Source of the DNA: Lytechinus pictus
Taxonomy: Eukaryota
Assembly: GCF_037042905.1 (NCBI RefSeq)
Contig: NC_087245.1
Span: 19,222,001-19,286,000, forward strand
Direction: 5' to 3'
Length of the DNA stretch: 64,000 nucleotides
Below the pieces are notes generated by a model that was given only the letters and a program-made list of their open reading frames with translations, did not search any database and had not been told where the DNA came from. The translations under genes and the position numbers were made by a program. Below, piece by piece: positions 381 to 23,845 of the stretch (the stretch's first letter is position 1; every line of letters begins with the position of its first letter).

Positions 381-413
381 TCAGTCTTCCTCGTCATCAT
401 CCTCAGGCACGTC
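381..413 (-). pseudogene. Orphaned C-terminal codons (DV-PEDDDEED*) of the minus-strand ORF, left of the insertion
   Basis: Removing 414-19046 restores one open frame ...LEDWTDVADVPEDDDEED-TGA(383-381). Confidence 0.35.
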
Positions 414-441
414 TATGGCGCGCCATTTGTTTCATAAAGGC

Positions 442-1377
442 GATAAACTCAGTTTATCGCCGAAAAACCTAGTTTATCAATCGAAAAACCTAGTTTTTCA
501 ATTGAAAAACTAAGTTTTTCGCCGATAAACTTAGTTTTTCGCCGATAAACTAAGTTTATCACTTGAAAAACTAAGATTATCAAGAAAAACTAAGTTTATC
601 GCCGAAAAACTTAGTTTTTCGATTGAAAAACTAGGTTTTTCTTGATAAACTTAGTTTTTCAATTGAAAAACTAAGTTTATCGTCGAAAAACTAAGTTTTT
701 CACTGATAAACTAAGTTTTTCAATGAAAAACTAGGTTTTTCAATGAAAAACTAGGTTTTTCAATGAAAAACTAGGTTTTTCAAGTGAAAAACTTAGTTTT
801 TCTCGATAAACTTAGTTTTTCAAGCGATAAACTCAGTTTTTCATTTGATAAACAGAGTTATTTGATAAACTAAGTTTTTCAAGTGATAAACTAAGTTTTT
901 CGAATTGAAAAACCTAGTTTATCGAATTGAAAAACCTAGTTTATCGAAATTGAAAAACCTAGTTTATCACTTGAAAAACCTAGTTTATCGCCGATAAACT
1001 AAGTTTTTCAAATCTGATAAACTAGGTTTTTCAATTTCGATAAACTAGGTTTTTCAATTCGATAAACTAGGTTTATCGCCTTTATGGGACAAATGGCGTT
1101 CCATAAGGACGCCATTTGTCCCATAAAGGCGATAAACTCAGTTTATCGCCGAAAAACCTAGTTTATCGAAATTGAAAAACTAGGTTTTTCGATTCGATAA
1201 ACTAGGTTTTTCGATTTGAAAAACTAGGTTTTTCAAGTGATAAACTAGGTTTTTCAATTTCGATAAACTAGGTTTTTCGATTCGAAAAACTAGGTTTTTC
1301 GATTCGATAAACTAGGTTTTTCGATTCGATAAACTAAGTTTTTCGATTCGATAAACTAGGTTTTTCAATTTCGATAA
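442..1377. repeat. Left terminal array of 17-bp palindromes GAWAAAC-NNN-GTTTWTC with 2-5 nt spacers
   Basis: Roughly 40 units with ~20-21 bp period, interrupted at ~1078-1130 by two back-to-back terminus-like motifs. Confidence 0.95.
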
Positions 1378-2727
1378 TCAGGGTTATTTACTGTAAGCCA
1401 GTAGTGGGCGCCATTCGACCCTGGACATGGAGAATATTGGAAGGCTCTAAGTTTGATTTTGAGTTTTTCCCCCCTTTTTACCGGACCGGAGAACAAGATA
1501 TGATTCTGTATATTTAATAGAAAAGATTATGAGCAAGATTCAAGAAATTAGCCAGCGACCTTATTTGTTGAGGGATAGGAATCCTAACGTTAACCAAATC
1601 TTCGTCGGTGACTCGAGCCGGTGCAATGAACAATGTGAGTGGGTCATACGGTACCAGCGCCTGAGCAGAGCAGCCCGGGGCGTCGTCGGGCGAAAGTTCG
1701 GTCGAAAACGTTGCTACAGCTACTGTCGGTGAGCCGAAACAGCCAAGCCGGAGTCCGCAGAATTGGTAAAGCCTATGGATAAGATTATAGAAAAACTAGA
1801 CCTACGGTACTGAATACTAAATATCACTACCATGAGAAAGGGTATGGCCATGGATGAATTTCGTTAGTCATTGACTGCAAGGGCAATGCTCGCCAAAAAA
1901 AGCTTAAGTTAAGACAGATCTGACACAAATAATTCTGGATCTATAACTTAGAGTTTCACGATAGAAAAATGAGCTTGCTCATATATGGCGTTGAGAAAAA
2001 AAAGATGAGAAAGTGCTACAGCTAGGTGGTGAGAAATGCGATTCAAGAGTTGGGTTTCTCAAAGCATTGACCTGTCAAAGGAAGAGTCAGAGACAGAGAA
2101 AATGTTCAAATACTAATGCCCACACGGCCACAGGTTGCCAAGCCCAAGAAGATCTACATGTACACATGGTCATGGAAGTGAGCAGAATGTCGGCCGTGGT
2201 CACGACCCAATCATAATGCATTTTGGGGCCATGATGGATTGAGATCGTGTTTTGACCTCATAGTCATATCAGCAAAAAAGCATGTTTACATTCAACGACC
2301 CGTGATTGTGAAGGCCAGACAGCCCCTCGTCATAGCGTCCATTTTGTTACGGATCTGCCAGCATCGCTCAAAAAGCGCTTCTTGTTCGAGCAACAGGTAT
2401 ATCGTTTGAGGAAAAGTGAGAACAAATCTACGAGCATCAGGCTTATTGGTACAAATCTCCAGCTACATAGTACATGTAGAGTACAAAGAGAAGGGATCAT
2501 CTTCACCATGGCATGCAGTGATTAATTGAGATAATTGGTCGATATTATCAGAATAATTCCATAACAAAGGATTACGAGAAAGTTTGACAGTGAAGTCTGC
2601 GATTCTCAAATTATTTATTATTTCACTCGTGTTCCTGTGATGAGAAAGAAAAGGAATCCACTTATTCATCTACAAAGTTATTTTACAAGAATAATCATCA
2701 AAATCATCAATACATTGTGTTTATCAA

Positions 2728-5230
2728 TAGGAGTGTGCTATAAATGGGTGATTTTTGGTTTTACTGTGCCAACAGTTTTTGTCTCGCCTGCATATAAAAC
2801 GAGACTATAGGCGCCGTTTTCCGATGGCGTCGGCGTCAACATCAAATCTTAACCCAAGGTTAAGTTTTTGAAATGACATAACTTCAAAAAGTATATGGAC
2901 CTAGTTCATGAAACTTGGACATAAGGTTAATCAAGTATTACTGAACATCCTGCCTGAGTATCAGGTCACATGACCAAGGTCAAAGGTCATTTAGGGTCAA
3001 TGAACTTTGGCAGGTTGGGGATATTTGTTGAATTACCATCATAACTTTGAAAATTTATGGATCTACAATGTAGTTCATGAAACTTGGGCATTAGGTTAAT
3101 CAAGTACCACCAAATATCCTGTGCGAGTTTCAGGTCACATGAACATGGTCAAAGGTCATTTAAGGCCAATGAACTTTGGCCGTGTTGGGGGGTATTTGTT
3201 GAATTACCATCCTAGCTCTGAAAGTTTATGGATCTAGTTCATAAAACTTGGGATATAAGAGTAATCAAGTATTACTGAACATCCCCTGTGAGTTTCAGGA
3301 CACAAAACTAAGGTCAAAAGTCAGTTTAAGGTCAATAAACTTAGGCCATGTTGGGGTAATTGTTGAATTGCCATCATTACTTTGAAAGCTTATGGATAGA
3401 GTGAATGAAATGTGGACATGGGTGTAGTTGACAAGTTTTATTCACCGTCCAAATGTCATTTATAGTCAATGAACGTGGTATAATGTCATTATATGAATGG
3501 TGTTTTTGTGAATGATTATTTTATAGTAGTTTTCAAAGTTAGCACTGCTGCTATATTAAATCGCGTAATGCAGGCTAGACTGCCAGAAGCACTCCACTTG
3601 TTTCGTATTCCTTTAACCTTATCTCAACATGAAATGACAATATTATTTGTCTCTGGTCACGGTGGTCCGAGAAAAAAGTGTGCCGGGCCCAAATCTAAAG
3701 TGGCCGCCAAAATCCCCCCAAATCACAGTTTTGGCCACAACTTCTTTCTTGGTGGTCATTTTATCTGGTTTTGGTGTCTATTCATGTTTTTTTGGGGGGC
3801 AGGCAATTTGTTTTTCCTAAAATTAGTTCTTTTAAACCATTATTTGTAAAGTTAAGAGGTGATTTAACTTAAATTTGCAAATTTTTTGACCCTTTTTTAA
3901 GCAAAATTAGGTTCCATCGTCTTGTGGTTCTTGGATATTAGATGACACCAGTTGACCAGTAGTAAGCAGCTTCATATAGCTATATTGCTTTTATTCCTCT
4001 AAATTGAGTTTAAGACGGATATTTGCGAAATACATCTTATCAAATAAGAAAATGTAATTTACGGTATCCATAGGGGTGGCACGGTGTACAATATATGGTA
4101 CATACTGTACACTGCATACATATCCATGCATTGACCACCATGGCATACAACTAGGACTTTATATATATACCAGTGGCATGCATGTAGTAGTGAGCTTCTG
4201 ATGTTTAGAATTAGATTGTGACTTGTGAATTTGATTGCTTGTTAGCTGATGAACATGATGTAACCCGATGATGAACATAAATTGCATGTAAACATCATGT
4301 AGTGTACGTACATACATGTACATCATATTTTCAGCCACATCTTCATTTGGCAGCTTGTTTTTACCTGGTATTCTAATCCTATATTATGGAGTCAGGTATA
4401 CCACATGTGGTAATGCTGGTCAATGGCTTTCAGGATTCCATGCAAGTTACCATTGGATGGCAAAGTTACCATAATCAGAAAGCCAGTGTAAGTGCCATAA
4501 TAGGGGGGGGGGTGACTTTAATCCATTGTTAAAGATATTTTCCTCCCCCCCCCCCCCCTGAATGAGCATAATTGACAAAATATGTCTTCAATCTGAGACA
4601 AAACATACAGTATCTTCAATTTCTCAATAAATCATTTAGTATCACACTATAGTTTATATACAGACCTTGTCATGATGGTCAATGCATGAATATACATGAA
4701 TGCAGTGTAGTATGTACAATACAATGTATACTGTATAGCCCCTATGGATAATACAATTTTTTTTTTCAATAATATATTTTTCGCAAATATCCGTAAAAAC
4801 CAAAGTAGAAGAATAAGAGCAAATAGCTATTTGAAATTATTTGCTATTATGGAACTGGTATCGTCCAATATCCAAGAACCACAAGAAACCTAATTTGGGG
4901 CTGAAAAGGGTATTGTATGTGTAAATGTAGGTAAAATCACCTTTTAACTCCAAAATTAATGGTTTTTAAGTAATCATTTCAGGTTAAACAAATTGCCTGC
5001 TCCCCCCCCCAAAAAAAACCCAACATATTATATGTGGGCAAAACTTTGATGGGGGGGGGGGGGGGGTTGGCAGCCATTTTGGATTTTGGCCTGGCACACT
5101 TTTTTCTCGGACCCGAGGCAAAAAATATTTGTCATTTCATGTTGAGATACATTACAAGGAATAGATCAAAACTGTTGCCATATTAAAATGTCAAAAAAAG
5201 TATTTTTGATCCATGTATAGCCCACTCCTA
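2728..5230. mobile_element. Non-autonomous DNA transposon with long diverged TIRs (TAG...CTA termini, Academ-like), interrupted by a HINE
   Basis: TAGGAGTGTGCTATAAATGG vs CCATGTATAGCCCACTCCTA. Inverted matches continue inward (3620-3690 vs 5090-5150; 3920-3950 vs 4855-4885; 4065 vs 4740). No clean TSD seen. Confidence 0.65.
2781..3600 (+). mobile_element. Helentron-associated non-autonomous element (HINE/DINE-1-like) with ~120-bp internal tandem repeats, copy 1
   Basis: 5' subTIR GTCTCGCCTGCAT, short GAGAC inverted repeat, GGC-rich linker, tandem units, then 3' subTIR ATGCAGGCTAGAC and end CCACTTG. Inserted in a T run without a TSD. Confidence 0.75.
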
Positions 5231-6797
5231 TGATCAAAGGGGTTTTGCTACTGAAGATTTTAAAGGCAAAGTTTTAAATGTTAAAGGAAACTTAGATGAT
5301 GAAAAATTGTCTGAGATTTTCTTATTTTTATGTCACGACCTGTCCTTTGGTAAATAGGAATTGTGTTGATATCTCAACATGTCTCTCTTTCGTTTAAGTT
5401 GAAACTGATAACTGACAATTTATATTTCATACATATTATTTAATTTTTGGTTTCTTACAAGAAACAAAAAATAAGGTATTGTTTTATGACTTTCATATGA
5501 AAGATCTGCCATTATCATAATATTACTACACATGTATTTGTTATTTACACGACTGTTTCCAAGTTGTTGGGGCTCCTGGCTGGTTCCATTATCAATTGGC
5601 CTCATGAAGATGAAAGTGGTTAGGGTATTTGAATGAAAATACATATAAATCAAGGATTTTGACAGGATACACTTTTCCAATAATTTTATGGTGCATATTA
5701 TTTATGTAGACATATGGTGCTATTCATTAAGCGGCTTAAACATGTACCATCGTTATCCTTGAGAAATTATGTTCAATGGAAAACAAATATTTCTCTTTTT
5801 TGCTTTTGTTATTGTTTCTGTGTTTCTCAGAGTAGTCAGGATAGTGATGTATGTCTTAAACAAATCCCCGAAGGATTGATGAAAAAAAAGCTGTACTTTA
5901 CAATACATTTTTGTTTGTAAAAGCATCATCCTTTTTGTAAGAACTCATACATCTGGTGTAAGGAAACATTAAGAGCTATAGCTTGATGTATGTAGCCACT
6001 TCTTCAATTATTTTGTTTGTGTTTATACTTTGATAATAACTAATCTATTCCAAGTCCATTGTGAATTGAACATCTTGGCCTATAGGGTATTATAGAGCTC
6101 AATACTGCCCTGGTTACTGTACATGATTGTATATTGTCTTTGTAGACGTTTTTTGATAAATACTAGGAAAAGCTATTAGGAGACTAGGAGTGGTTTTTTC
6201 TTTTGTTTTTGTTGTAAAGTTGTACTTTGTTATGTTTTCTTTCACAATTCATTGAATGCGAAGTTTTTGATGGAAAGTATGTGATTGGTCAGGATCAACA
6301 CTTCAAGAAAAAATCTATAGGTTTTTATTATCTATTGAGATACATGTTGGGTTCGTTTTATAACCATTGATTTGTAAAGATGTTCAGACAGAACTTAGAA
6401 AGTTTACAGAGAATTCATTTTAAAACCACTCCATGCTTTATTATCATTATTGTGTTTTTTTTTTCAGAGTGTGACTTGTTACTTATGGCAATGTTGTTTT
6501 TGTAAAACAAAAGAACAATTTGTTCTCTCATTTAAGTATTTTTTAAAGGAACAAAGCTAAAATAGAAGCTTGATATTATTTATCTTTTCTGTATAATGAC
6601 TCATTGCATTAATTTACACCTGGCATAAGAAGTAAATTTGAGATAATTTTGTCTCCACAGTGTCTTTTTTAATTCTCTATCTCTATCCTTAACTTGAGTT
6701 TTTTTAATACTGCCATGTATGCTTGTAGTGGCAATGTATATGTAGCTTCTAGTAAAACCTTTCAACATGTAACTTTTTGTGACTGAAAGTGATTTTT

Positions 6798-8147
6798 GTC
6801 TCACCTGCGAAGCATAGTGAGACCTTATGCGCCGCTTTTCCGACGGCGTCAACACCAAATCTTAACCGAAGTTTAAGTTTTTTAAATGACAGTATAACGT
6901 AGAAAGTATAAGGACCTAGTTCATTAAACTTTGCCATAAAGTTAATCAAGTATTGCTGAACATCCTGCTTGAATTTTGAGTCACATGACCAAGGTCAAAG
7001 GTCATTTAGGGTCAATAAACTTTGGCCAAATTGGGGGTATTTGTTGAATTACCATCATAACTTTAAAAGTTTATGGATCTGATTCATGAAACTTGGACAT
7101 AAGAGTAATCTTGTGCCACTACACATCCTGTGTGAATTTCAGGTCACATGATCAAGGTCAAAGGTCATTTAAGGTCAATGAACTTTGGCCAAATTGGGGT
7201 ATTTGTTGAATTACCATCATAACTTTGAATGTTTATTGGTCTGGTTCATAAAACTTGGACATAAGAGTAATCAAGTATCACTGAACATCCTGTGCGAATT
7301 TCAGGTCACATGACCAAGTTCAAAGGTCAATGAACTAAGGCCATAATCTATTGAATTACCATAATAACTTCGAAAGTTTTTGGATCTGATTCAAGAAACT
7401 TGGACATAAGAGTAATCATGTACCACTACACATCCTGTGCGAATTTCACGTCACATGACCAAAGTCAAAGGTCATTTAGGGTCAATAAACTTTGGCCAAA
7501 TTTGGGGTATTGTTGAATTACCATCATAACTTTGAAAGTTTTTTGGTCTAGTTCATAAAACTTGGACATAAGAGTAATCAAGTATCACTGAACATCCTGT
7601 GCAAATTTCAGGTCACATGACCAAGTTCAAAGGTTAATGAACTTAGGCCATAATCTATTGAATTACCATAACTTCTGAAGTTTTTGGATCTGTTTCAAGA
7701 AACTTAGACATAAGAGTAATCATGTACCACTACACATCCTGTGCGAATTTCACGTCACATGACCAAAGTCAAAGGTCATTTAGAGTCAATGAACTTTGGC
7801 CATATGGGGGTATCTGTTGAATTACCATCATAACTTTGAGAGCTTTATGGATCTGATTCATGAAACTTGGACATACATGTAAGAGTAACCAAATATCACT
7901 GAATGTCTTGTGTGAGGTACAGGTCACATGACCTCTCAAAGTTTATAGATATAGTGTATAAAATGTGGATATAGGGGTAATCAAGTATCTCTGACAAGTT
8001 TTAGATCACATGATCAAGGTCAAATGTCAATGAACGTAGTATTGTATCATTATACATGAATGGTGTTTTTGTGAATAATTATTTCATAGTATGTTTCAGA
8101 GTGTGAATCGTTTGATGCGAGTGAGACTGCCAGAGGCGCTCCACTTG
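6798..8147 (+). mobile_element. HINE/DINE-1-like element, copy 2 (about 9-10 internal ~120-bp repeats)
   Basis: Same ends (GTCTCACCTGC ... GTGAGACTGCCAGAGGCGCTCCACTTG) and same internal unit (GAAACTTGGACATAAGAGTAATC...GGTCACATGACCAAGGTCAAAGGTCA). Confidence 0.8.
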
Positions 8148-8738
8148 TTTTTTCATGGAATGATTACCAAGATATTGACTGATTATGTTGATTTATTAAT
8201 AATTTATTGAAAAATATGAATGTTTGATTGATCACATTACACATTGATTATGAGTAGACTTATTGATAAATTGTTTAATAAATGATTGATATGTAAAACT
8301 TGATGCACCACTCCCGATTTTCATTATTTATCATTAAATCAACATTGTGCTCTTGACTTTCTTACGCACATGTAATAGCAATCTGTCTGTCAACAGGAGG
8401 GGAGGGAGGGGGCTAAATGTTCTCTTAACCCTTATTCCATCAACCTAATTCTCCCACTAAGTGCCATCTCACTCCCTATTATCCCGACCCCCATGAAGAT
8501 CCACATGATAAAGTTAAAATGCTGCCCAGAAAAGTACAATTTGTGTTCACTCATGCATTGAAGTTCAATTTAATAATTTATGAAATTTACTTGAACAACC
8601 AAACTGGTCATGATTGATCATTAATTCATCACAACACCCTTAATTTTTCAGGTTTCAATTAAAGGATTTGCCTCTCAGAACTGGCAGAAATTGTAAGGCT
8701 AATTCATGCCCAGCCTTATTTTCATACCCTTTCTTTAA

Positions 8739-9303
8739 AGAACAAGTCCATCCCAACAAATAGTGGATTGAATAAAAAGAGAAATATCAAACAAGTATAA
8801 CACTGAAAATTTCATCAAAATCGGATGTAAAAAAAGAAAGTTTTGACATTTTAAATCTTTGCTTAATTTCACAAAACAGTTATGCACATGCTGGTCAGTA
8901 TGCAAATGAGGAGACTGATGACATAATCCACTCACTATTTCTTTTGTATTTTATTATGTGAAATATGGAATATTCTATTTTTCTCCTCTTTGTCAAGTGA
9001 AACAACGATTAATTCCTCCCTGAACATGTAGAATTAGCATTATTTAATACTATATTGTTCAGACATGTTGGTCCTTATTGTCAAATCTATAAAAAAATAA
9101 AATATTGTATAATTCAAACAATATAAAACAAAAGAAATAGTGAGGGGCATCATCGGCCGTCTCATTTGAGTTGTGCATAACACTGTGTTGTGAAAAATAA
9201 GCAAAACTTTAAAATGTCATAACTTTCTTATTTTACATCCGATTTTGATGAAATCTTCAGCGTTTAGCAAGTTTGATTTTTCTCTATTTACTCAAATCAA
9301 CAT
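8739..9303. mobile_element. Kolobok-type MITE (TTAA target), right end lost
   Basis: TTAA|AGAACAAGTCCATCCCAAC start with an internally inverted arm. Same family as 20658-21213 and 51650-51850. Confidence 0.7.
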
Positions 9304-10049
9304 AGTGGGGAGTGCTCGCTAAACACTTATGGGTGTCTTTGAAGGTTGACTTTATTGGCTATCCCCCCCCCCCCCCAAAGTGATATATTTTTTTGTTTGG
9401 CAGCCATTTCAAAAGTATATAGTTTTTTTTTGGACGCACTGACTGTACAGGAGCTTCCATCAAATAGATATTACTATTGTATCAATGTCAGGGTCGTATG
9501 TAGGGGGTGCAAAAAGGGAAAAGGGGCGCGGATAAAGAAATTGAAAAAAATGAAAAGGTAAAAGAATAACAGTGCTGAAAAGGGATACCTCTTGTTATTA
9601 CCATGGTAATGTAGTTTCCAACACATTTAGGAAATTAATCTTGCATGTCTTTATGCAGGGATGAATATTCATGCCACTTTTTGATTGATGTTAATCATAC
9701 TAATTCTCTAAAAATTCCAACAAACAGAAATATTCCTTTTTTAACGCAAATCTTGCTGCCGGTTTGCATTTTGATATTTTACTTTTCATTAATTCTCACA
9801 AATAGTTCTGAAATACATTATTCTCTGGTTCTATTGTCAAAGCTTTTCAATACGCGCTGATTTGATAAGGGAGATATAAATCATCTTCATAGATTTCTAC
9901 TAGTAATCATTGAAATGTCCTTTTTGGGTGAGAATATAATATAAAGTCAAGTCATATAAAATATAATCTCAAGCATGGTAAAAAATAATATGACATATAC
10001 TTAGTACTACATGTAGTTTCTATGTATGAAATCACAGATGAAATAATCG

Positions 10050-10850
10050 TGAAGATGATGATCAAGATGTGGTGATGAGGATAATGATGTGGGTGAAGAT
10101 GATAATTATAGACTGGTGATGGTGATGAGGTGGGTGGTGATGATGAGGATAGTGATAGTAATGGTGTCGATGATGGTGATGATGAAGCCATATGAAACAT
10201 AAATAATAAGAGAAAGAAAAGAGAGAAGATTTTCAGTATTATGTCAGAATCTATCAAAACGTAAAATTATGTAATAAAAATATAGAAAAGTTTGCTTGCT
10301 CACAATTAAAAAAAAAAAATACTGGCACAATCTGCCATATCTTGTCCCTCTCAAAATCTTTGGCTCATTACGCCAATGATAATTTATTTGGTGGTGATAA
10401 TGAAAGTAATTATATTAATAATGATGGTGATTATGATGGTCATGATAGTGACGATGATCATGATGGTGTGGTGATGGCAATGATATTGATGAAGTTGATG
10501 ATGATCACTCCCTTTTCATCTCCAACCATTTTCACATCTCCAGCTTTCATCTCAATCCTTCCTCTCATCTCTAACCTCTCCTCATGTCAACCCTTCCACA
10601 TCGTTTCCATCCACCTCATCTCCCTGCTCGTCTCTTGTAACCCACTCATCTCTAAACTTTATCATCTCCATCCCTCCCACATCATCTCCATCCATCCTTG
10701 CATCATCCCCATTCCTCCTCTCATCATCTCCATCCACTCGTCGTCCCCACCCTTAACTCCATCACTCATCATCATGGCCATCCCACCTTTCATCATCTCC
10801 ACCACCCCCCCCCCCCCCCCATTTAATCTTCATCTCTCCAATCATTTCCA
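10050..10850. repeat. Degenerate (GAT)n / (CAT,CCT)n low-complexity tracts
   Basis: GATGATGGT-type runs at 10050-10190 and 10395-10505, then a CATC/CCT-rich run. These explain the spurious ORFs 9952-10257 and 10342-10866. Confidence 0.8.
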
Positions 10851-10861
10851 TCTGATTACCA

Positions 10862-11025
10862 GGTGACCCAACATTTGCTCCTGCGATAATTGCCCCAGGA
10901 TTAATTCTGTCTTCGAGGGTCAGGGTTGCAATAGGGTTTCATGGTAGGTTTATAGGGGTTGAAGCTGAATAGTGTGTGGAATTTACAGCGGAGCAATTGT
11001 CGCCAGAGCAAATGTCATGGAACTC
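10862..11025. mobile_element. Short MITE with ACATTTGCTC...GAGCAAATGT inverted ends
   Basis: ACATTTGCTCCTGCGATAATTGC vs GCAATTGTCGCCAGAGCAAATGT. A related remnant lies at ~54930-55062. Confidence 0.55.
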
Positions 11026-11255
11026 ATTACCACATCTCTCATTAAAGGTTGAATATTAAGCGGGATAAAGAATACTTCATAGTGAAATAACCCAATATTC
11101 AAAATACTTCTTTGGAGTAAAGTGGTTTTATTAAGTAACAATAAGATAAACTTAATCAGATGTACAGTTACATTGTAACACATATTGAACTGAGGTGTAT
11201 ATAAAATACATGTATATTATATCCCACAAAAATCAAATCCTGGTTCAAAACTTAA

Positions 11256-11832
11256 AGGGATGGTCCGGGCTGAAAATATTTATATCTTAATACATAGAGT
11301 ATAATTCACTGAGCAAAATGCCGAAAATTTCATCAAAATCGGATAACAAATAATAAAGTTATTGAAGTTTAAAGTTTAGCAATATTTTGTGAAAAAAGTT
11401 GTCATGAATATTCATTAGGTGGGCTGATGATGTCACATCTCCACTTTCTGTTGTCTTATGTTATTACATAAAATCATATTTTTTTCATTATTTCATACTT
11501 GTCTGAATGTCCCCCTTATAATGAAATAAGTTGCAGCAATAAATATTTAATGCACTATTCAGTTGACAATCCAATTTTTCTAGTTCTTGGAGGAAAAAAA
11601 ATTGAATAAACCTAATTTCATATAATAAAATACAAAAGAACAAGTGGAGATGTGACATCATCAGCCCACCCAATGAATATTCATGACGACTGTTTTCACA
11701 AAATATTGCTAAACTTCAAAATTCAATAACTTTGTTATTTGTTATCCGATTTTGATGAAATTTTCTGCATTTTGCTCAGTGAATTCTACTCTATTTATTA
11801 AGCTACACATACTTTCAGCCCAGGCCATCCCC
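11256..11832. mobile_element. Kolobok-type palindromic MITE
   Basis: TTAA|AGGGATGGTCCGGGCTGAA ... TTCAGCCCAGGCCATCCCC|TTAG, with ~200-bp inverted arms. Confidence 0.8.
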
Positions 11833-12384
11833 TTAGATAGCATTACATTACCAGATACATTATTATGATGATGAATATGACAATAGCATAGTAATATCAT
11901 AATTCCAGTTGGGAACAATATCCTCTGTTTTGGTGTCTATGTAAAGCTAACAATAAGGACAATCTTAAAATTACAATAGTGGCCAATTCAATTAACATTT
12001 ATCAAACAATTGCACTTTGTTTCAGGAATATACATCCTGTTATAAATTACTAAATTCATATTTGGTTACCATGTCAATTACATAAACCCCAACTTACCTG
12101 GAGGGATTTTCAGCCATCCCTCATCATTGTTTGTCATAAACAAAAACTGGCCATACAGGGTTTGCGATTCAGGCGGCCTCAAAATAGTTGGAATGATAAG
12201 AATGATATAGAGTACTGACAATATTATAGCGATATCAAATATTTTGAAGCTCTGCAGTCTGCACCTCTTTTGCTACTGAAACAAATCAAACCATTTCAAT
12301 CTTCACTTTGTCTTCAATTTAGAAGCAAATAATTTTTTTAAATATATTAAAGTTAAGATAATTGCAACTCATTCAATCTTAACA

Positions 12385-12834
12385 TGAAAGTTCACTTGGA
12401 CAAAACAAGTCTGCTATGCAGGTGAGACAAAAAAATTGGTGAAGGTTTGAGGAAAATCTGTTAAATATTAAAAAATGTATTAGAATTCTAAGCTTAGCCT
12501 TTGGATTTGTGGCGTCACACACACGAGCAGCTGCCAAATAAAGTTATGTAATATAAAATGCATGAATTTCATTTTTTAATGGTTCCAGAGGACATATTTT
12601 TGTTATTTTGTGTTTTCTTTTCATGTTTGGGTGTAAAATGATTGGTCCTTTGATATAGAAAAAAAAAATTCATTATGTAGAAATGCTGCCCGAATATGAC
12701 GTTACAACTCAAATAATTGAAATTCAAATAACTTTTTAATTCTTTGATGGATTTTCCTCAAAACTTAGGCAATATTTTTATTATTTTTTTCTTCTGTTTT
12801 AACAATAAACTTTTTGTCAGCGTGAACTTCCCCT
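12385..12834. mobile_element. Diverged Kolobok-type MITE
   Basis: AAGTTCACTTGGACAAAA vs TTTTGTCAGCGTGAACTTCCCT|TTAA. Confidence 0.55.
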
Positions 12835-12902
12835 TTAAACCCACTTGAACGATACTTGGTATCATTTGGAAGATTTATAAAACAGATATTACACATGAAT
12901 TA

Positions 12903-13482
12903 AACCTAAATAGACTGGGCTATTTCGATGCCTAAGAAGACTGTGGGGGGGGGGGCTGATTCAGCCCCCCTCCTTATGATCTCGGCCGTTGATCGCGACG
13001 AAACTTGGCACCCGCGTTACCAATGGCATAATATACAAAACTACAGGATCAAACTCTGTGAAAAATCTCATTGCTAATTAATTATGCTAATTTATGCATG
13101 AAATCAGAATTTTGCTTTAATTAACTAAATAATGCCCCTAAAATGCTAATTTTTGGTACACAGACACTTTATATTAATCTGTTCAAATGTACTAACAAAA
13201 AATTTCAAAATCACATTAATTTTTTCATGTATTTAACTGTTTTCAAAATTTCTTATGTATTTCTTTGTTTTTTATTGTTTTTTCAATGGAAATTGTCGGG
13301 GACTTTATTTGGACCATAAATAAGATGGAATTAATTGATTTCAATCAGTAAATGGAAAAATTATACATTTATGAATTTCGGCTAAGAACTCTATTTGCAT
13401 TGGATTTGTACACAAATTTACGTTTTTGTGCAATTTTGGGTCTGCATGCACTTATGAAATGATGCGTAATTTTGGAACCCCC
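12903..13482. mobile_element. Truncated piggyBac-like non-autonomous element (same family as 57069-58627, opposite orientation)
   Basis: ACCTAAATAGACTGGGCTATTTCG is the reverse complement of the 58600-58628 end. Internal segments match 57230-57600 in inverted orientation. Confidence 0.65.
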
Positions 13483-13798
13483 CGTATCCAAAATATCCGT
13501 GAGTAGATGTCTGGGGGGGGGGGGGGGGGTAAATGTCCAGGGGGTAGATGTCCGGGGGCTAGATGTCCGGGGGGTAAATGTCCGGGGGGTAAATGTCCGG
13601 GGGTAAATGTCCGGGGGTAGATGTCCGGGGGGTAAATGTCCGGGGGTAATTGTCCGGGGGGTAGATGTCCGGGGGGTAAATGTTCAGGGGTAGATGTCCT
13701 AGGGGGTAGATGTCCTAAGGGGGTGGATGTCCGGGGGGTGGATGTCCGGGTGGTGGATGTCCGGGGGGTGGATGCCCAGGGGTAGATGTTCGGATACG
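13483..13798. repeat. G-rich 13-16-bp tandem array (GGGGGTARATGTCC)n bounded by CGTATCC...GGATACG inverted ends (foldback-like MITE)
   Basis: About 20 units seen directly, with short terminal inverted repeats at 13483 and 13798. Confidence 0.8.
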
Positions 13799-14990
13799 AT
13801 ACAATATATATATTAAAAAAGTTAATTTTTCATTCAATTCGATTGTTCTTTCTTTCTTTTAAAGAATTTGGAAATACATGTACCAAAAATAAGAGTTGAA
13901 CTTTGATATACCTGCATGAACTGCATAAAAAATTATTTATTGTATCTATGAAGCTGTATTACCTCATCGATCAAAGGACTGCCCAAGTCATTGGAATTCG
14001 GTACTCTTTCTTTTAATGAAAGAAATGGAAAATCCGTCTTGTTGAATATGAAACCTCTTCTCGTCCATGGTGTAGGTTGGTACCAGCCCAAGTGCTTGTA
14101 TCCTCCAGGAGACCCGTTGTTTACAACTTTTAAATGGAAGTTTCATTAAAGCTGCGACAGTAACAAGTAAACAAATGAGAGACGTGTTTTTTATATCGAA
14201 AAGCAAGTTTTTAGATTTTGATAAGGCAAGTTAAGTTTTTCAATTTTAGTAGAATACATTTCTTTTTTCAATGACATATTCTTTCATATTGAGAAACTAA
14301 GTGTTTCAATTTTGATTATAATCATGATTACATTCTATGTCAGTTGTGCATCCCCATCCTGCTCCTACAAACTTAGAAAACACTAAAAATTTGTAATTAT
14401 GTATACGAACAAAAATAAACAATGAAGACAATTTCCTACAAAACTGTAAACTTCATCATGATAACGTCAATACTGAGAATTGTTCACCCCTGTGCATTTT
14501 GTGTATTTTTTGTAGCCTTGCACAATTTGCAGATATGACCCATATGCCCCTATAAAACATACCTTTGTTAAGTCAGGTGGCTTGTTGACGAAAAGGAACT
14601 ATTACGGATGGCAAATTCCTCTTGGGATTGTATAAGTACAACAATCAACTGAGCTGGCCTCCGAAGAACCAATGTAACTGTGTTTATTCAATCTAGGAGG
14701 TTAAAAGAAAAAGAGGGAAAAAACATCCTCAGTTTCATGACCATAAATATATCACTGAAATTGTAGTTTACATAACTTTCTATATCATCATGAACCTACA
14801 TGTAATGCATATTTGACTCTACAGTCTGAATTAAATGGACTTGACAAATAAATTGAATATTGTTGGTAAAAATAATCTTCTATGTCTGAACAGGTGTCTG
14901 CAGCAGTTAATAAATGATGCATATTTGTTGCATTAAACTCTGCCAAAGACAAATCTAAACGTCTGAAAGAACACTAATGTTTGCATTTCA

Positions 14991-15184
14991 ACTGGGCGTT
15001 GTGGCGTGCGCCTGTAATCCAAGCTACATGTACGTGGGGAAGTTACAATTTGATGCAGAAGTTCGAGGTTCGAATCCTGGTCACGTCTTTCGGATGGTGA
15101 CGTTAAAGGTCGGTCCCAGACGTAAATAATCATATCTGATTGATACACGTCTGACAAAACTCAAATACACACACACACACACAC
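14991..15184 (+). mobile_element. SINE with 7SL/Alu-domain-like head, B-box, Deu/Nin-domain-like segment and (CA)n tail, copy 1
   Basis: Head ACTGGGCGTTGTGGCGTGCGCCTGTAATCCAAGCTAC, B-box GGTTCGAATCC, body GTCTTTCGGATGGTGACGTTAAAGGTCGGTCCC, (CA)n tail. Confidence 0.7.
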
Positions 15185-15186
15185 TA

Positions 15187-15371
15187 ACTGGGCGTTGTGG
15201 CGTGCGCCTGTAATCCAAGCTATGTGAGGAAGTTACAAATTGATGCAGAGGTTCGAGGTTCGAGCCCTGGTCACGTCTTTTGGATGGTGATGTTAAAGGT
15301 CGGTCCCAGACGTAAATAATCATATCTGATTGATACACGTCTGACAAAAACTCAAATACACACACACACAC
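15187..15371 (+). mobile_element. Same 7SL-headed SINE, copy 2 (head-to-tail with copy 1)
   Basis: Near-identical to copy 1 apart from a few substitutions and small indels. B-box GGTTCGAGCCC, (CA)n tail. Confidence 0.7.
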
Positions 15372-15541
15372 TATCTGTGCAGTTTCCACATATAAAAACA
15401 AAACATTCTAATGCTAGGTGCATAATTTATCCTTTTTCTGAAATAATTGTTTTTCCTAATTTTGGAAATCCTTTTCTCTCACAAAACCTTACTTTTGGTT
15501 AAAACAATATCTGCTATCAAAAATATCAACTAATTCAAATA

Positions 15542-16644
15542 GTCACTCTCAATGGGACGGTTCGCCGATGAATATTCATTAGATTGTGGTCGTGTGCACG
15601 TGTGTGTGTACAATACCGAGTGTAAAAAACAAAGAAAGTTTTCAAATGGTGTGTGTGTGTATAACACAACGCAGGAGTTTATTTTACAGAGAATGAGTAG
15701 TATAGTGCAGAAAATTAAAGTGTACAATGAAGTTTTACAGAGGAGGAAATAATATAAATACATATGGAAGACAATGCAAGATGAGGTGAGGCAAGTACAG
15801 TGATTTTTTTTTCTCAAAAGTATTAGTAGTAGAGGAAATCATGGGGAAAAAATATATTATAGAGGACAATGTAACATGAGATGAGGCAAGTCTGCAATGA
15901 GGTTTTTTTTTCAAAGGAGGAGATAATACAAATATATATCTAGAGGACAATGTAAGATGAGATGAGGCAATTAAGTGTACAGTGAGGTTTTAACAAAGAA
16001 TGTATAACTAGGATAAGATAAAAAGAGGACAATGTAAGATGAGCTGTGGTAAGTGTACAGTGAGGTTTTTTCAAAAGAGGAGATGATAAAAAAATACCGG
16101 TATGTAGAGGACAATGTAAGATGAGGCACGTGTACATTGAGGTTTTATCAAATAATGTATAATGATGATGTAGACTGTAGAGGACAATGTAAGATGAGCT
16201 CTCACTGTACACTTGCCTTGAGCCCTTGATCATCTCATCTTACATTGTCCTCCATATTTGTATTATCTCCTCTTGAAAAAACCCTCACTGCACACAAGTT
16301 TGCCTTATCTCATCTTACATTGTCCTCAATAATATATTTGTATTATTTCCTCTACTAATACTTTTGAAAAAACAACATCACTGTACTTGCCTTACCTCAT
16401 CTTGCACTGTCCTCCATATATTTATATTATTTCCTCTTCTGTAAAACTTCATTGTACGCTTTTATTTTCTGCACTATACTACTCATTCTCTGTTAAATAA
16501 ACTCCTATCCCTACGTTGTTTTATACACACTCACCATTTGAAAACTCTCGTTATTTACACTCGGTATAGTATACACACACACACACACACCCATGCACGT
16601 GATCCAATGAATATTCATCGGCGAACCGTCCCATTGAGAGTGAC
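15542..16644. mobile_element. ~1.1-kb near-palindromic foldback/MITE with internal GAGGACAATGTAAGATGAG repeats
   Basis: GTCACTCTCAATGGGACGGTTCGCCGATGAATATTCATT is exactly inverted at 16606-16644. The arms run ~400 bp toward a centre near 16200. Confidence 0.85.
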
Positions 16645-17004
16645 GTAGGAGCTGGACATTTCATCGCCCTTTGTTGTCATCAAAAGTGGCTACCAGAAAA
16701 TACAAGCATTGAACCTAGCCGCTTGTAATGGGCACTTAATACATGCGTTAAAACTTTCACTTGACTCGTGCACTTTCCGTTCCAAATTTTCACATTTGTA
16801 TGTTACATATATATAGATCCTATTTATCTCATACTTTACTCACTTTCTTGGTGGAAAGTACCATGACTCAGAAAGTCAGGAATGAAACATAATGGTGTAA
16901 TTTGCCTGAAAAACTACAGCGAAACAGCTAAAATCATGCCTGCTGCACATGCCTGCTGGCCTGAAGCAGGCCTGGGCCCAGGAGTCCAAAGTGCATTTAA
17001 ACAT

Positions 17005-17485
17005 AGACATGGGACTAGGGTAGATTGTGGTCTCAATAACAAAATAAACAGAAATTATGCACTTACCATGATTATATGGATGAAGCCAGGTCAATCGTGT
17101 GGCAGTATCCTGACATCGAGGTACAGACTGGAATCTCAAAAAAACGAAAAGTTATCTCCTGCTACCCCAGTCTCGATCAGCCATTTTGTTATGAATTTTG
17201 AAAAAAATTAGGAGATGTATCACGAGGTATTCTGTCCCGTGAGTATGGGTAAATACACGGTGAGCTCTGACCTGGGACTCACTGGGAGAACTTCTCGTTT
17301 TTTTGAGGTTCCAACTTCCAGTCCGTGCCTCGATGTCAGGATACTACATGTACCACTCGATAGACCTTCATCCATCGTGGTAAGTGCATAATTTCTGTTT
17401 TCACAATTTATCTTGCTAGATTAATAGATATAGCGAACATAATCTACCCTTGTCCTGTGAGTATGGGTAAATACACGGTGAGCTC
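17005..17485. mobile_element. Diverged inverted-repeat element (MITE remnant)
   Basis: 17047-17160 is inverted at 17284-17401. A 33-bp direct repeat GTCC(C/T)GTGAGTATGGGTAAATACACGGTGAGCTC occurs at ~17234 and ~17452. Confidence 0.6.
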
Positions 17486-18180
17486 CTGGGCGCCGGCCCG
17501 CGAAGCATGCCGGCGCTCCCGGGCCTGGGTATGATCAATGATTGATACTTTCACTGTGTTGAAAATGAAATACATCTTCCGTGCTTTTTTCTTCTTGCTG
17601 TGCTGGATAACCTCAATGGTAACACTTAACAGGCACTCGCGCTCATGCCTAAGTTACAACATTAGCATCGAGTCACCATGGACAAAAGTTCTTCTTACTT
17701 AGGTCTTAGCTATCAATATCATACTCAAAGCAGCAGAATCGTAATCGTACCCAGGCAGCAGGGAGAATCCACACCGCGGCCGGGCAGCTTCGCGGGTGTG
17801 GGCTCTCTGCCTCTGGGTTAGCAACCAAGCGGCACGGAAAGCATCGAACCATCATCTTCTCCGTTGTTCTCCCCCGATATTCGGGGCAGGGATCAGCGGT
17901 ATCCGCTGCTCAGGTTGGGGTGTCAGGTTTGTTAACACCATGAAAGCCGACAACCATGGCTGCCGTTGTATTATAAAAAAATATATAATTGGAACTTACC
18001 TTGGCTTTAGTTTCAGTTATCCAGCAGTACAGTTGGCGTTGATGAATTTGACGTCCAAAACTAACTTCAGACGTGGTAAAAGTGGTAAAATACTGTGTTT
18101 CTTGTAATAATCGCAATGGCAGCTTTGTTTGCCGTGTAAATGCATGCAGTACGTGCGCGCGCGCGCCCGCTCACAAATTC

Positions 18181-19012
18181 GATAAACTGAGTTTTTCAAT
18201 TTCGATAAACTAGGTTTTTCAATTCGAAAAACTTAGTTTATCGAAATCGAAAAACCTAGTTTATCGGCGAAAAACTAAGTTTATCGGCGATAAACTAGGT
18301 TTTTCGATTCGATAAACTTAGTTTTTCGATTTCGATAAACTAGGTTTTTCAATTCGAAAAACTTAGTTTATCGAAATTGAAAAACCTAGTTTATCGGCGA
18401 AAAACCTAGTTTATCGCCTTTATGAGACAAATGGCGTTCTTAGAAAAACTCAGTTTATCACTTGAAAAACCTAGTTTATCGCCTTTATGGGACAAATGGC
18501 GTTCTTAGAAAAACTCAGTTTATCAGATTCGAAAAACTTAGTTTATCAGAATTGAAAAACTAAGTTTATCACTTGAAAAACCTAGTTTTTCGCCGATAAA
18601 CTAAGTTTATCACTTGAAAAACTCAGTTTATCTAGAAAAACTCAGTTTATCAGTCGAAAAACTAAGTTTTTCAAGAAACTCTGCTTTTCACTTGAAAAAC
18701 CTAGTTTTTCATTGAAAAACTTAGTTTTTCATTGAAAAACTTAGTTTATCGGTGAAAAACTTAGTTTTTCGCCGATAAACTTAGTTTTTCAATTGATAAA
18801 CTAGGTTTATCAAAAAAACCTAGTTTTTCAATTGAAAATCTAAGTTTTTCGGCGATAAACTTAGTTTTTCTTGATAAACTTAGTTTTTCAAGTGATAAAC
18901 TTAGTTTATCGGCGAAAAACTAAGTTTATCGGCGAAAAACTTAGTTTTTCAATTGAAAAACTAGGTTTTTCGATTGATAAACTAGGTTTTTCGGCGATAA
19001 ACTGAGTTTATC
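18181..19012. repeat. Right terminal array of the same 17-bp palindromes
   Basis: Roughly 38 units, with internal terminus-like motifs CGCCTTTATG(A/G)GACAAATGGCGTTCTTA ending at 18442 and 18507. Confidence 0.95.
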
Positions 19013-19040
19013 GCCTTTATGAAACAGATGGCGCGCCATA

Positions 19041-21772
19041 CACGTCCGCAACATCAGTCCAGTCTTCAAGTCCCAACTTCACTTCAAATCGAGGACACAA
19101 TGTTGCAGTATTTTCAAAGCACTGATAGTCATGGTGACAACATAACTGTAGATAAATTTTTCTCCAGCTTGTCCCCCATTGTCCCACACTGTAAAAGTTA
19201 CCTCAATGCCAGCTCCATTGCTATGAGGTTAAATTTCGGTCGTCTGAACATTGAACATACTACTATAGGAATTAAAGTTTTTGTGTCATCTAACTCCAAG
19301 TCGATTCTTATTGATGTTATAAACATATCACAATTTAAGAATCCAAATATGTTTCGTAGATTAAAAAAAAAGTTAACGGAAAATGCTCTATAACTTGCTA
19401 TGCTCCACCGCTAAAAAGAGAGCTGATATCTTATTCCCTCTGACCATGGAGCTAATAGCTCTATGCTCCGACATCACTCAATACTCTTTCGATTGTAACA
19501 TAAAAGATGCAATGTCAGTTATGCAGCATCACCAACAAATTAAAAGCGGTGTATATATGATTACATCTGAATTACTTATGATAAATCCATATGAAATAAA
19601 TCATTTGCAGGAAATCTACAACTTTAATGACTGATATCGTATTATAAACAACGACACCATTAAATGTGTTATTCTAATTTCCACTTGAATTTTTCACTTT
19701 GACATCTCCATAGGCAGCGGAAGCGGGGACAGGTCCCCCCCCCCCCCCTAAATTTTTAGTTGATAAATTTTTTTTTTATTTTTTGGCTTCCACCGCCAAT
19801 GTACATCTCCCATTGTTACAGTTGCAAGTCAGTCTCAATTTGCAGAAATTACGATTGTGAAGGATTATGATCTTCCTCTTTTGTAGATCTGGAAAATATC
19901 GTCTGAGCATGTTCACCATTTATTAAAAATATATTTATTTCTTAAATTATACTTGAATTTAAATTCAGGATTTGTTCACAGATAAGAGAAGTTGAGCATT
20001 TTGCACATCACAGAAATTTGGTTCATGCAAATACATGTATTAACATGATCACTAGTAATGCACTATCAAATATCAATACATGAAACCAGTTACTGTGAAA
20101 ATAAAAATGATGGGTACTGGACGGAACGTTTCTGGACTAATGTTTTATTTTGGAAACAGAGATCTAGGATTGTTTGAAATATGACAAAATGTTCGAAACA
20201 AAATTTCATCTCTAAACAGAATGGCAATGACACTCCTGTTGCCTGTTTCATAGAGAGGTACAACTATCATAACTTTGTCTTTAATATGGCGCAACATCCA
20301 ATTATAATTGTGGTTTCCATGGTAGTTGCCATAATGTTAAAGTACTTTTGAAATGGGCCCCTGGACATGAAGAATACTGACAAAAGAAAGTTGATTGTGA
20401 AATAAAAAGAATACATTCATCTTCAAGAAATTTTTTGACGCCCCATGCATTTTTTGTTGTTTATATATCTCGTATTATTTTTTTCTGTAATAAATTAATG
20501 AGCATCACTTTTTTTTCAACAACAAATATAATGTAGATTGCTGAAGAACCTAAAATATATTTGGAGCTGAACTAAACTCAAAATAAAGATGTCGACAAAA
20601 TGAAGTCCAGTGTTGCTCTTATTTATTGGGCCAGACCTCACTTGGCATTGCTTTTAAAAAACAAGTCCACCCCAACAAAAAAGTTGATTTGAATAAAAGA
20701 GAAATATCCAACAAGCATAACACTGAAAATATCATCAAATTCAGATGTAAAATAAGAAAGTTATGACATTTTAAAGTTTCGCTTAATTTTCACAAAACAG
20801 TTATATACACATCCTGATCGGTATGCAAATGAGGAGACTGATAACGTCATTCGCTCACTATTTATTTTGTATTTTATTTATATGAATATGAAATGTAATT
20901 TTCTTCTCATTGTCAAGAGAAACAACAATTAATTCCTCCCTGAACATGTAGAATTAGCATTGGTTTAATCAAGTTGGTCATTATTGTCAAATAAATGAAA
21001 TATTGTATTTTTCAAACAATAAAAAAAAAGAAATAGTAAGGGACATCAACTGTCTCATTTACATATCACTGAGGTGTGCATATCACTCTTTTGTGAAAAT
21101 AAGCGAAACTTTAAAATGTCATAACTTTCTTATATCCGATTCTGCATGAATCATGCTAGTTTGACTTTTTTCTATTTATTCAAATTAACAGTTTTCTTGG
21201 GTGGATTTGACCTTTAAACAAATAATATACCGTATTCAAATATGTTCAGAAATAATTTCGTATAACCAATTTAACTAATAGAAACAGAGAGAATAGAAGA
21301 ATCAAGAAAAGTGGAAGAACTAAGGGTGAAAGGTGACCAATGAGCACGAGGTCATGAATGAAGAAGAATGTTCTGAATATAAATGAGAAGACAATAGAAA
21401 CATGTGGAGTTGTAATGGCATTAGAATCTGATATATAAACTAAGGAGTAAGGAATGAGATAAACTAAGGATTGAGATGAACAGGTGACAATGGCATAGAA
21501 ATGGGAAGTGAAGTATGGAAAGCAAAGTGTAAAATAAAAAGATTAATCATGACAAAATTCAATTACATTTAAATAGAACGATCAATTCCCGTATAGATAT
21601 GAGTGAATAACAAAGAATACTTGTGTCTGTCCAATGAGCAGTCCGTCAGATTGATGCTTCTTGGTGGAATTCAAGACAAGATTAATTTATACATAGGACA
21701 TAGATACACGAAAATCCTTAAAAATTACTTCTTGCCACGCCTGAAGCAGGCTTCTTTGCCTTGGGTTTTCAT
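19041..21772 (-). CDS. Putative small spliced ORF (97 aa before the insertion) of unknown identity; last exon split by the 18.6-kb transposon
   Basis: Exons 21772-21729, 21659-21621, 19888-19853 and 19188-19041, continuing at 407-381. All introns are GT-AG phase 2, giving MKTQGKEACFRRGKKSINLTDCSLDRHKSTKEEDHNPSQSVGQWGTSWRKIYLQLCCHHDYQCFENTATLCPRFEVKLGLEDWTDVADV|PEDDDEED*. No family recognised. Confidence 0.35.
19709..19801. mobile_element. Tiny hAT-like MITE
   Basis: CATAGGCAGCGGAAGC...GCTTCCACCGCCAATG with 8-bp TSD GACATCTC/TACATCTC (1 mismatch). Confidence 0.65.
20658..21213. mobile_element. Kolobok-type MITE, full length
   Basis: TTAA at 20654-20657 and 21214-21217. CAAGTCCACCC...GGGTGGATTTG TIR. 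Homologous to 8739-9303. Confidence 0.8.
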
Positions 21773-21804
21773 GGGTACATTGGACGGTTTTTGCCTGCTG
21801 GACG

Positions 21805-21929
21805 GGATCCGTGCACGGCTTTATTGCCGTGCCGTGGGGCAGTGGAAACTGGAAAACAGCACGGCGTGCCGTATGCCGTGCCGGAATGCCGTGCACGGTC
21901 GCCGTGCCGGATGCGGTGTAAACGGGCCT
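21805..21929. repeat. CpG-rich GCCGTGC repeat cluster ending in GTGTAAACGGGCCT|TAA (PIF/Harbinger-like terminus); overlaps the presumed divergent promoter region
   Basis: About 8 copies of CCGTGC/GCACGG. The terminus and TAA flank are typical of Harbinger ends. No partner TIR found in the window. Confidence 0.45.
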
Positions 21930-23807
21930 TAACTCGGGAGCTCCGTCGCCGGTAAGCGGCGGGGGAGGTAAAGATCCTTAACCAATTAAAAATGAGACTA
22001 GCGGTAGCGGGGCAAACCTGTTCATTTTTTTTGTTCAGTATTGATCTAGAGAATTATACAACAATTTGTACTAAATTAGCTTGCTATTTTACCCCCTAAT
22101 CTTGATAACGCCATCCATCAAGTTGTTAATTATTCCAAGACCAAGTCCAAGTGATTAAAAAATGACATATTTTGGGGTAAATTTTGGTTGTGTTATAAAA
22201 AGCGACTGACTAAACTAAGTCAAAGAGTAAAGTCATCACTCATGTCATGACACTGACACATTTGTTAATGTTGGGCTAGATTAAATTTAGGCATCCAAGC
22301 CTGGTTTAATGCAATTCTGTTGCACTGTAAGCCAAGTTCAAGATATTGTATGTGCGGATGGTTGTTTGTAGTATTGTACTTTGTATGGACAAGATGGCAG
22401 TTAATTTTTTATTGCTTTGTTTGAAACTGTCAGGTAATGGATTATGGCAGTGTGTCTCAAATTTGTGCATGGTCATTTATCTAAAAACTAGACCCTATTC
22501 AATATCTTTGAAATCTGACATCATACACCAAAAAAAGCAACCTAAATTACCCTTTGACATACATTTCTTAATGATGAAATAAGTATTCATGAAAATATTG
22601 ACAAAATATCAAAAAATTTGTCACCTTTTTTTCAGGCGTTAACACTCATTCGGAAAAAAAATCCTAAATTGAAATATGAACTTCTTAACAAGCATCAAAG
22701 TTGGTAATGGTATCATAAAAAATCTGAGTAAAACATGGTACTGACCTTACCAATTCTATAGCATTCTGTCATCCATATTCATAGATATATCTTACCTTAT
22801 GAGATTGAGTTTTCTTTGAAACTCCATGACTCTTTTGTCCGTGAAATAATGCCACACTTTTTTAAAACGATTAATTTTTTTTCTAGAACAGTGATTGGAA
22901 TATAATTTTGAGATCGCGATACCAATGAAACCCCTTGACTTGCTTCACTTTAAATCAGTAATTTTTTAGTCTACAACCTCGCCGTTACTTATGTGAATTG
23001 GTTTTTTATAAAATGTTAATATTTTTAAATTAATTTTAGCCTGATAAATAGTTATGAACCCATCAGTCATACATGTACAAGAAAGGGAAACACAAACATT
23101 CATAATATTTGTGAGATTTGAAGCATAAATTTTGAGAGCCATAACAAGAAACTGTGAAGCTTCTGATGAATGGAAGGCCAAATATTTGCAATTTATTGTC
23201 AAATCTCCAAGAGCTACATGTAAAATGAGGGAAGATTGCTGATGTTTAGGCCATCAGCTTGGTATTGCAATGGAAAGCAGTGCTATGTAATTTGTACTGG
23301 CAGTGCAGGTATGCAAATATTGGAGTCAATTACAGTATGTCACAAACTTGCTACACCTTTGTATGTTATTCATATGAAATTTCTTCATTTTCTATATTTG
23401 ATAGTAAATAATCTCTTGATTGAATCATTTGCAAGTGAAGTAACAGTAATGGCAATTCCACTTCTTGAATGAGGATTCCAACCATGTTTTATTTTATTGT
23501 AAGAAATAAATATTTGATATTTTTTAAGTGATGAAATACAATAGATTAAAAAAAAAGATTTGATGAGTGTGTGTCATCATCAACCCCTTCATTTGCTTAC
23601 TACCAAGGATGTGTATACAGTGTATCACCAATTTGTAAGTATAATATACCAAACTTTAAAATCCAGAAATATTATGTTTTGCATTTTGGCTTTTTATTCA
23701 AGCCAACATTTGGTTTGGGTGGACCTGACCTTTAAGACTTTCTAAGATGTGTTGTGTATAGTTGTATACAATATTAAATTATTTTGTTTTGTTTTGTCAT
23801 CCCTCAG

Positions 23808-23845
23808 GAGTGATATCATCAAGTGTTGACTAGGAGACCTCCATC
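23808..23845 (+). other. CFAP65: 5' UTR part of the first coding exon of CFAP65 (spliced from an upstream non-coding exon, possibly ending at 21951)
   Basis: Polypyrimidine tract plus CAG acceptor at 23805-23807. Candidate upstream donors G|GTAAGC (21952) and G|GTAAAG (21968) lie in the only CpG-rich patch upstream. Confidence 0.5.

Follow-up and report, generated by a model that had tools for sequence, protein, structure and literature searches.

The window, as we call the whole analysed stretch of 64,000 nucleotides, contains an 18,627-bp element (414-19040) whose two ends are built from long arrays of a 17-bp near-palindrome, the first copies of which stand at a conserved distance from the tip. 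We interpret this element as a probable cut-and-paste DNA transposon copy with IS3EU-type ends and foldback-type arms, apparently without a transposase of its own. Judging from the sequence, we consider it rather probable that the palindromes are sites for an IS3EU-type transposase dimer supplied in trans, arranged as a terminal core that is fixed plus extra copies that grew by slippage. What is new is the conserved geometry of tip and palindromes, by which end recognition in the IS3EU superfamily becomes open to experimental test. IS3EU/GingerRoot elements are known mostly from sequence, and end recognition by their transposase is undescribed in the literature passages covered. A site that is conserved and keeps its distance from the tip offers a definite substrate with which binding and excision could first be assayed, and the unit motif could be used to find further families and the autonomous partner.

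With regard to the repeat unit, the motif GAWAAAC-NNN-GTTTWTC has 75 exact matches in the window, against a mean of 0.01 in 100 shuffles, and the array reported in a preliminary description of this DNA is therefore real. The exact units are split between 442-1366 (40 units) and 18181-19012 (35 units), with none elsewhere in the window; the interior holds no exact unit, and the arrays are limited to the element ends. When degenerate copies are included, the left arm comprises 43 units and the right arm 38. The right array had previously been taken to start at 18508, which omitted 11 inner units. Among the 81 units found with at most 3 mismatches, the central triplet is CTA/TAG in 35, TAA/TTA in 34, TCA/TGA in 9 and another in 3, so that the six triplets already listed account for 78 of the 81. 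The unit centre measures 3 nt in all 75 exact units, in a search that allowed 0-9 nt, and the gap between neighbouring units varies from 2 to 6 nt. The half-sites of the 81 units are 98-100% conserved at non-W positions, which is an upper figure because the units were chosen by likeness. The left-arm period averages 21.0 bp (41 steps), in agreement with the ~20-21 bp proposed earlier, but it ranges from 17 to 23 bp and differs between the outer 16 steps (mean 20.2) and the remainder (21.5).

The boundaries of the element are well defined. Only one of the 17 symmetric registers tested (414/19040) yields a 6-bp direct repeat, CACGTC, corresponding to a target-site duplication, and in this register both ends start with TATGG (tips TATGG..CCATA); a 6-bp match at a given junction is expected by chance with a frequency of ~4e-4. 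Four runs were compared with 18950-24700; for X1 and X5 (organism A) and for X9 (organism B), contigs match the right flank starting precisely at 19041 and do not continue across the element end. Ahead of this point, the X5 contig includes 144 letters that do not fit the element end. These contigs probably represent the empty site, presumably joined there to the left flank. In the raw-read run X21, the depth near 19041 was too low to contribute. A contig of X9 holds an internal head between units, which indicates that the family is also present in organism B. Runs X1-X4 contain 0.61-0.65 of the sampled words of 11900-19600, and none of them is on record as RNA. The tips, the duplication and the probable empty site together bear out the proposal that the arrays are transposon ends.

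Table 1. Features of the element, in window coordinates.
Feature	Position	Strand	Remark
Target-site duplication, left copy (CACGTC)	408..413	+	Sole 6-bp repeat among 17 registers
Left terminal head, 28 bp, TATGG start	414..441	+	27/28 bases identical to right head
Outer left array, 31 palindromic units, first gaps 3, 4, 4 bp	442..1077	+	
Internal inverted head, TATGG start, 28 bp from its own first unit	1078..1105	-	
Degenerate internal head, 27 bp, shares TA overlap with inverted head	1104..1130	+	
Inner left array, 12 units, last degenerate, period 20-23 bp	1131..1388	+	
Interior, 16.8 kb, many nested repeats, no transposase detected	1389..18180	.	
Inner right array, 11 units	18181..18415	-	
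Two degenerate internal heads (18416-18442, 18481-18507), two units between	18416..18507	-	
Outer right array, 25 units, mirrors left arm over outer ~16	18508..19012	-	
Right terminal head, + strand end CCATA	19013..19040	-	
Target-site duplication, right copy (CACGTC)	19041..19046	+	Contigs of three runs stop fitting the element side here

Both arms are interrupted by internal heads (Table 1). Followed inward from the tip, the left arm consists of a head, 31 units, an inverted head, a degenerate head and 12 units; the right arm consists of a head, 25 units, a degenerate head, two units, a second degenerate head and 11 units. The pair at 1078-1130 is a head-to-head pair that breaks the left array, and no target duplication flanks the head-array-head block formed by 414-1105. 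We ruled out that the element combines two complete mini-elements, as the inner end of the right arm has no outward-facing head. The two arms mirror each other only in their outer part: units 1-8 from the tip are identical in unit and spacer, the first 16 positions comprise nine that are identical in both and five more that are identical in the unit only, and none of the 24 positions from 17 to 40, compared by index, is fully identical. Base by base, the identity is 340/350 from the tip and 37/50 in the next block. The order of variants, which had been considered conserved between the arms, is thus common to their outer ~16 units and not to the inner ones. The outer ~350 bp may have stayed alike through a recent common origin or conversion, with the inner array blocks drifting apart. 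The spacers occur as reverse-complement pairs, and exact 35-mers are common to the inner blocks in both orientations, which points to growth of the arrays by duplication and inversion.

Relatives were sought with a two-unit pattern that did not include the tip. It matched 63 loci in metagenome contigs, 43 of which hold arrays of at least 4 units; there were no matches in viral contigs and 12 short stretches in prokaryote genomes, 11 with two units and one with four. A TATGG-type tip lies beside an array end in 26 of the 43 array-bearing loci, ties being broken towards an offset of 28, and is lacking in 17. It is present at 30 of 86 array ends, compared with 294 of 8600 random places (3.4%). 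A wide occurrence of the array away from transposon termini was thus not seen. All 63 loci were used for the tip counts, the triplets and the NACGTN bias. For head spacing, unit centre, head identity and duplication counts, 14 loci (L014, L023-L026, L028, L033, L034, L037, L046, L050, L059-L061) were dropped by eye, being on plasmid-like or prokaryote-like contigs or short arrays in another context, which left 49 animal-like loci. This sample is narrow and was picked by the unit itself, with 42 of the 49 loci coming from one assembly prefix.

The 49 loci contain 33 tip-like heads, for which no tie was broken towards 28. An offset of 28 bp for the first unit was observed in 20 of these heads, and one of 26-29 bp in 30; the 20 heads fall into four groups, and the counts are therefore not independent events. 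A first gap of 3 bp is shared by 23 of 30 metagenome heads and a second gap of 4 bp by 13 of 23, with later gaps scattering, and both true ends of the window element read 28/3/4 (first-unit offset, first gap, second gap). The unit centre is 3 nt in 210 of 222 exact pairs. Beyond this geometry the loci are diverged from the window element: their heads have just 13-17 of 28 bases in common with its head, their centre triplets differ, and blastn showed no further sequence in common. The positions before the heads show a NACGTN bias (A 25, C 25, G 24 and T 27 of 40 heads), with which CACGTC in the window agrees. L027 is a complete element of 492 bp with a 6/6 duplication of TACGTG, and is the only one of 23 loosely paired metagenome head pairs to exhibit a full 6-bp duplication.

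Several of these loci resemble the window element in their arrangement. L001 (1-2780) and L038 (1-700) belong to a related family in which one sequence recurs inside both arms and a longer second repeat follows further in; its innermost degenerate unit resembles the left inner end in the window. Head-to-head joints similar to that at 1078-1130 occur within the arrays of L008 (~340-390), L044 (~1205-1260) and L062 (~270-320). In the plasmid-like L014 (950-1032) and L033 (3128-3188), the same 17-mer occurs as three or four direct 22-bp repeats adjoining what we take to be a replication-protein-like frame. These direct repeats are probably iterons whose likeness to the unit would be coincidental.

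In the mechanism that we propose, the mobilising protein would come from an autonomous element located elsewhere and, as a symmetric dimer, would recognise two half-sites in each 17-bp unit. Positioning of the enzyme at the cut site would fall to the first two or three units, at 28, 48 and ~69 bp from the tip. The other ~35-40 units of each arm would stem from slippage, inversion and copying of whole head-plus-array blocks, and could provide additional loading sites without a fixed helical register. We infer a symmetric dimer at a transposon end from three features taken together, namely the fixed distance within the palindrome, the free distance between palindromes and the fixed register at the tip. 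The idea of dimeric transposase-binding sites, already present in the preliminary description, fits the 3-nt centre, the variable gaps and the tip-fixed first units in diverged relatives, and we keep it as a putative assignment. Against it stand the lack of a transposase in the searched interior frames and the fact that common descent alone could give conserved spacing. A broader proposal, which we put forward tentatively and regard as possible but doubtful, is that of an animal IS3EU lineage with one end-recognition code, consisting of a TATGG tip, a unit at +28/+48 (~+69) and a NACGTN target, the rest of the tip diverging. The inverted internal heads would then make each arm a ready-made mini-element (414-1105) and the source of short head-array-head elements in the other host.

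The transposase-dimer reading has to be weighed against four others. One is that of the preliminary description, in which ~40 sites on one helical face zip the ends together and let the 19-kb element synapse. The mean left-arm period of 21.0 bp, the 76% of left-arm neighbours lying within 45 degrees of each other (at 10.5 bp/turn) and the modal period of 20-21 in other arrays (173 steps) agree with this, but the coherence of the phase along the left arm amounts to R = 0.10-0.14, and within the outer block the phase drifts through more than one full turn (the value for the right arm, R = 0.12-0.24, includes two false units inside heads). Moreover, the arms cease to mirror each other after ~16 units, and 22 of 169 exact junctions in the metagenome loci have abutting units (gap 0). 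The same arrays of GAWAAAC-N3-GTTTWTC fill elements of 0.5-0.7 kb (L027, L057), which lends no support to a special need for synapsis over ~19 kb. Placement on one face is thus not sustained, and we regard this full version as decidedly unlikely. The units could instead serve another protein, such as an accessory anti-silencing or chromatin factor or a host factor, or form a DNA-shape signal with A/T tracts every 10-11 bp that bend DNA or position nucleosomes. VANC/VANDAL provides a precedent for sites of an accessory anti-silencing protein. IS3EU elements carry second genes, according to the passages covered of PMC12730594. The AA/TT periodicity is also strong, peaking at 10.0-10.1 bp in the outer blocks (reached by 0 of 300 background windows) and at 10.85-11.0 bp in the inner blocks (reached by 0-3 of 300), but this follows from the unit itself. 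The confinement of the arrays to the element ends speaks against this pair of proposals, and a shape or chromatin role leaves the 28-bp tip offset and the 3-bp first gap in diverged relatives unexplained. We therefore consider another protein and a shape signal, taken jointly, to be unlikely.

It could also be that only the terminal units are needed and that the long arrays act as a brake or sink that binds transposase, or are neutral products of slippage. According to the covered part of PMC11707139, piggyBat is suppressed by a subterminal site, and its authors caution that arrays taken to be required could in fact inhibit; in the window, the inner blocks vary freely from one arm to the other, and copying has placed them in direct and inverted orientation. 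On the other hand, the conservation of the half-sites and the recurrence of long arrays in several families argue for use rather than decay, without telling helping from braking, and we give this possibility little credence. Finally, the units might extrude as hairpins or cruciforms that promote end cutting or recombination, as the preliminary description had also suggested. The unit is indeed a near-palindrome with a 3-nt loop, the single-stranded left-arm units fold with a median of -3.25 kcal/mol (40 units), and larger local inverted blocks are present. However, perfectly complementary 7-bp arms are observed in 27 of the 75 exact units, against 38 expected under independence, the other 48 being mismatched between the two W positions; in the metagenome loci the figures are 117 of 213 and 105.5 (not significant), and the p-values of these stem counts are unreliable because the units are not independent. 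The bases flanking the units pair in just 35 of 75, and the A/T-rich stems of seven pairs are short. Extrusion is thus disfavoured and appears very improbable.

Regarding the known systems, the passages covered of PMC12730594 and PMC10045372 describe the IS3EU signature as TAYGG..CCRTA tips with a 6-bp target duplication. The window element shares with IS3EU/GingerRoot its TATGG/CCATA termini, its 6-bp duplication, its size of several kb and its terminal inverted repeats of more than 30 bp, with tips identical over 340/350 bases. Its membership of IS3EU is probable, resting on the tips and the duplication, and transposase-less copies of IS3EU/GingerRoot elements are described in the parts covered of PMC12730594, PMC10045372 and PMC6839031. 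The Repbase rule for non-autonomous elements, in the excerpt covered, is that the first 11 bases align with a classified family (PMC4455052). The window element differs from the published descriptions, as far as these are covered, in its arms of ~0.9-1.0 kb made of palindrome arrays with nested heads, compared with TIRs of 100-150 bp in GingerRoot and "longer than 30 bp" in fungal IS3EU. It also differs in the NACGTN target bias, GingerRoot showing no nucleotide preference at the target other than GC richness in the passages covered of PMC6839031. Neither the GAWAAAC-N3-GTTTWTC unit nor IS3EU foldback arms were found in literature titles and the starts of abstracts; a Repbase or Dfam consensus may hold the family.

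The arms have the structure of the foldback class, with long TIRs containing tandem repeats that vary between the arms, a type that in sea urchins is represented by the TU elements. Long TIRs of short tandem repeats are likewise found, according to the passages covered, in Galileo (PMC3688188), in Tetris (PMC4079207) and in Muta1 of Aedes (PMC5225508), the latter with nine 12-bp repeats separated by 3-4 bp spacers. Those elements belong to the P or Mutator superfamilies, whereas in the window element each repeat is itself a near-palindrome. The duplications of Tetris and Muta1 measure 8-10 bp in the parts covered of PMC4079207 and PMC5225508, against 6 bp here. A Mutator-type foldback element of this kind was rejected, as the longest duplication at any of the 17 registers is 6 bp. 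The TIR repeats of Galileo hold extra sites for a transposase domain, the THAP domain, in the covered part of PMC3688188; extra transposase sites in repeat arrays of long TIRs are thus already established for Galileo, and Muta1 is structurally similar, as far as these sources are covered. The passages covered of PMC11707139 describe for piggyBac and piggyBat an imperfect palindrome near the tip that is bound by two domains of a transposase dimer, with the site repeating inward. They belong to another superfamily and have two or three sites rather than about forty, so the analogy is functional only. With regard to size, Polinton/Maverick elements measure 15-20 kb. They also have a 6-bp duplication (PMC10045372, PMC6839031), but in the passages covered of PMC6839031 Polinton ends start with AG and not with TA. 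A Polinton/Maverick was rejected on account of the TA termini and of an interior with no long reading frame and no polymerase or integrase Pfam match among its searched frames.

In the interior, the search for a transposase gave no convincing Pfam match among 135 frames of at least 38 aa outside eight masked repeat blocks, a search that short exons could escape; six read-through frames at the inner ends of the arms were negative as well. An Integrase_H2C2 match at 18052-18180 (E = 0.003) lies below the Pfam cut-off and was not counted, since ~0.4 such matches are expected by chance among 138 queries and IS3EU is reported to be without the HHCC motif in the passages covered of PMC10045372. A candidate minus-strand exon at 13936-14142 yielded no relative, its four matches in a representative library being long repetitive proteins with summed weak stretches. 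The region 1529-2500, starting ~140 bp inside the left arm, comprises broken, GC-richer frames that may suggest a LINE ORF1-like protein; the searches assigned them to no family and no relative, and gave no relative for the degenerate frame at 1876-2067 either. The stretch 17700-18180 is CpG-rich (observed/expected 1.01, compared with 0.47 for the interior) and contains a minus-strand splice-donor-like site near 17995-18000. It possibly represents an inward promoter with a first exon. Rfam gave no match in 1-22000. Nested repeats occupy 2810-3610, 6800-8150, 13524-13793, 14990-15371 and 15540-16640, and comprise a 145-162 bp tandem family, which also occurs at 57600-58500, a 15-bp G-rich array, a 190-bp dimer and an inverted pair.

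The right flank, 19041-20563, is covered by one unspliced contig of X1, a run whose RNA nature is a guess, at a depth of 214.6, compared with 81.4 at an exon of the CFAP65 region. A few X21 RNA reads lie at 18950-19525, in an orientation opposite to that of the reads on the CFAP65-region exon. The element may have landed in a minus-strand transcript. The flank frame at 19041-19190 has no relative among those searched, and we claim no disruption of a coding exon. Further along, Pfam matches mark exons of a plus-strand CFAP65-like gene at 42120-42617 and 47886-48275, and 23807-24018, which is covered by a longer contig, is presumably another exon of this gene. The CFAP65 domains mark the host as an animal. 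A frame of 346 aa with a reverse transcriptase domain is present at 25960-27000. Two other repeats were observed outside the element, namely an array of 10-bp palindrome-like units at 36543-36870 and a near-perfect 45-bp tandem repeat at 53339-53613.
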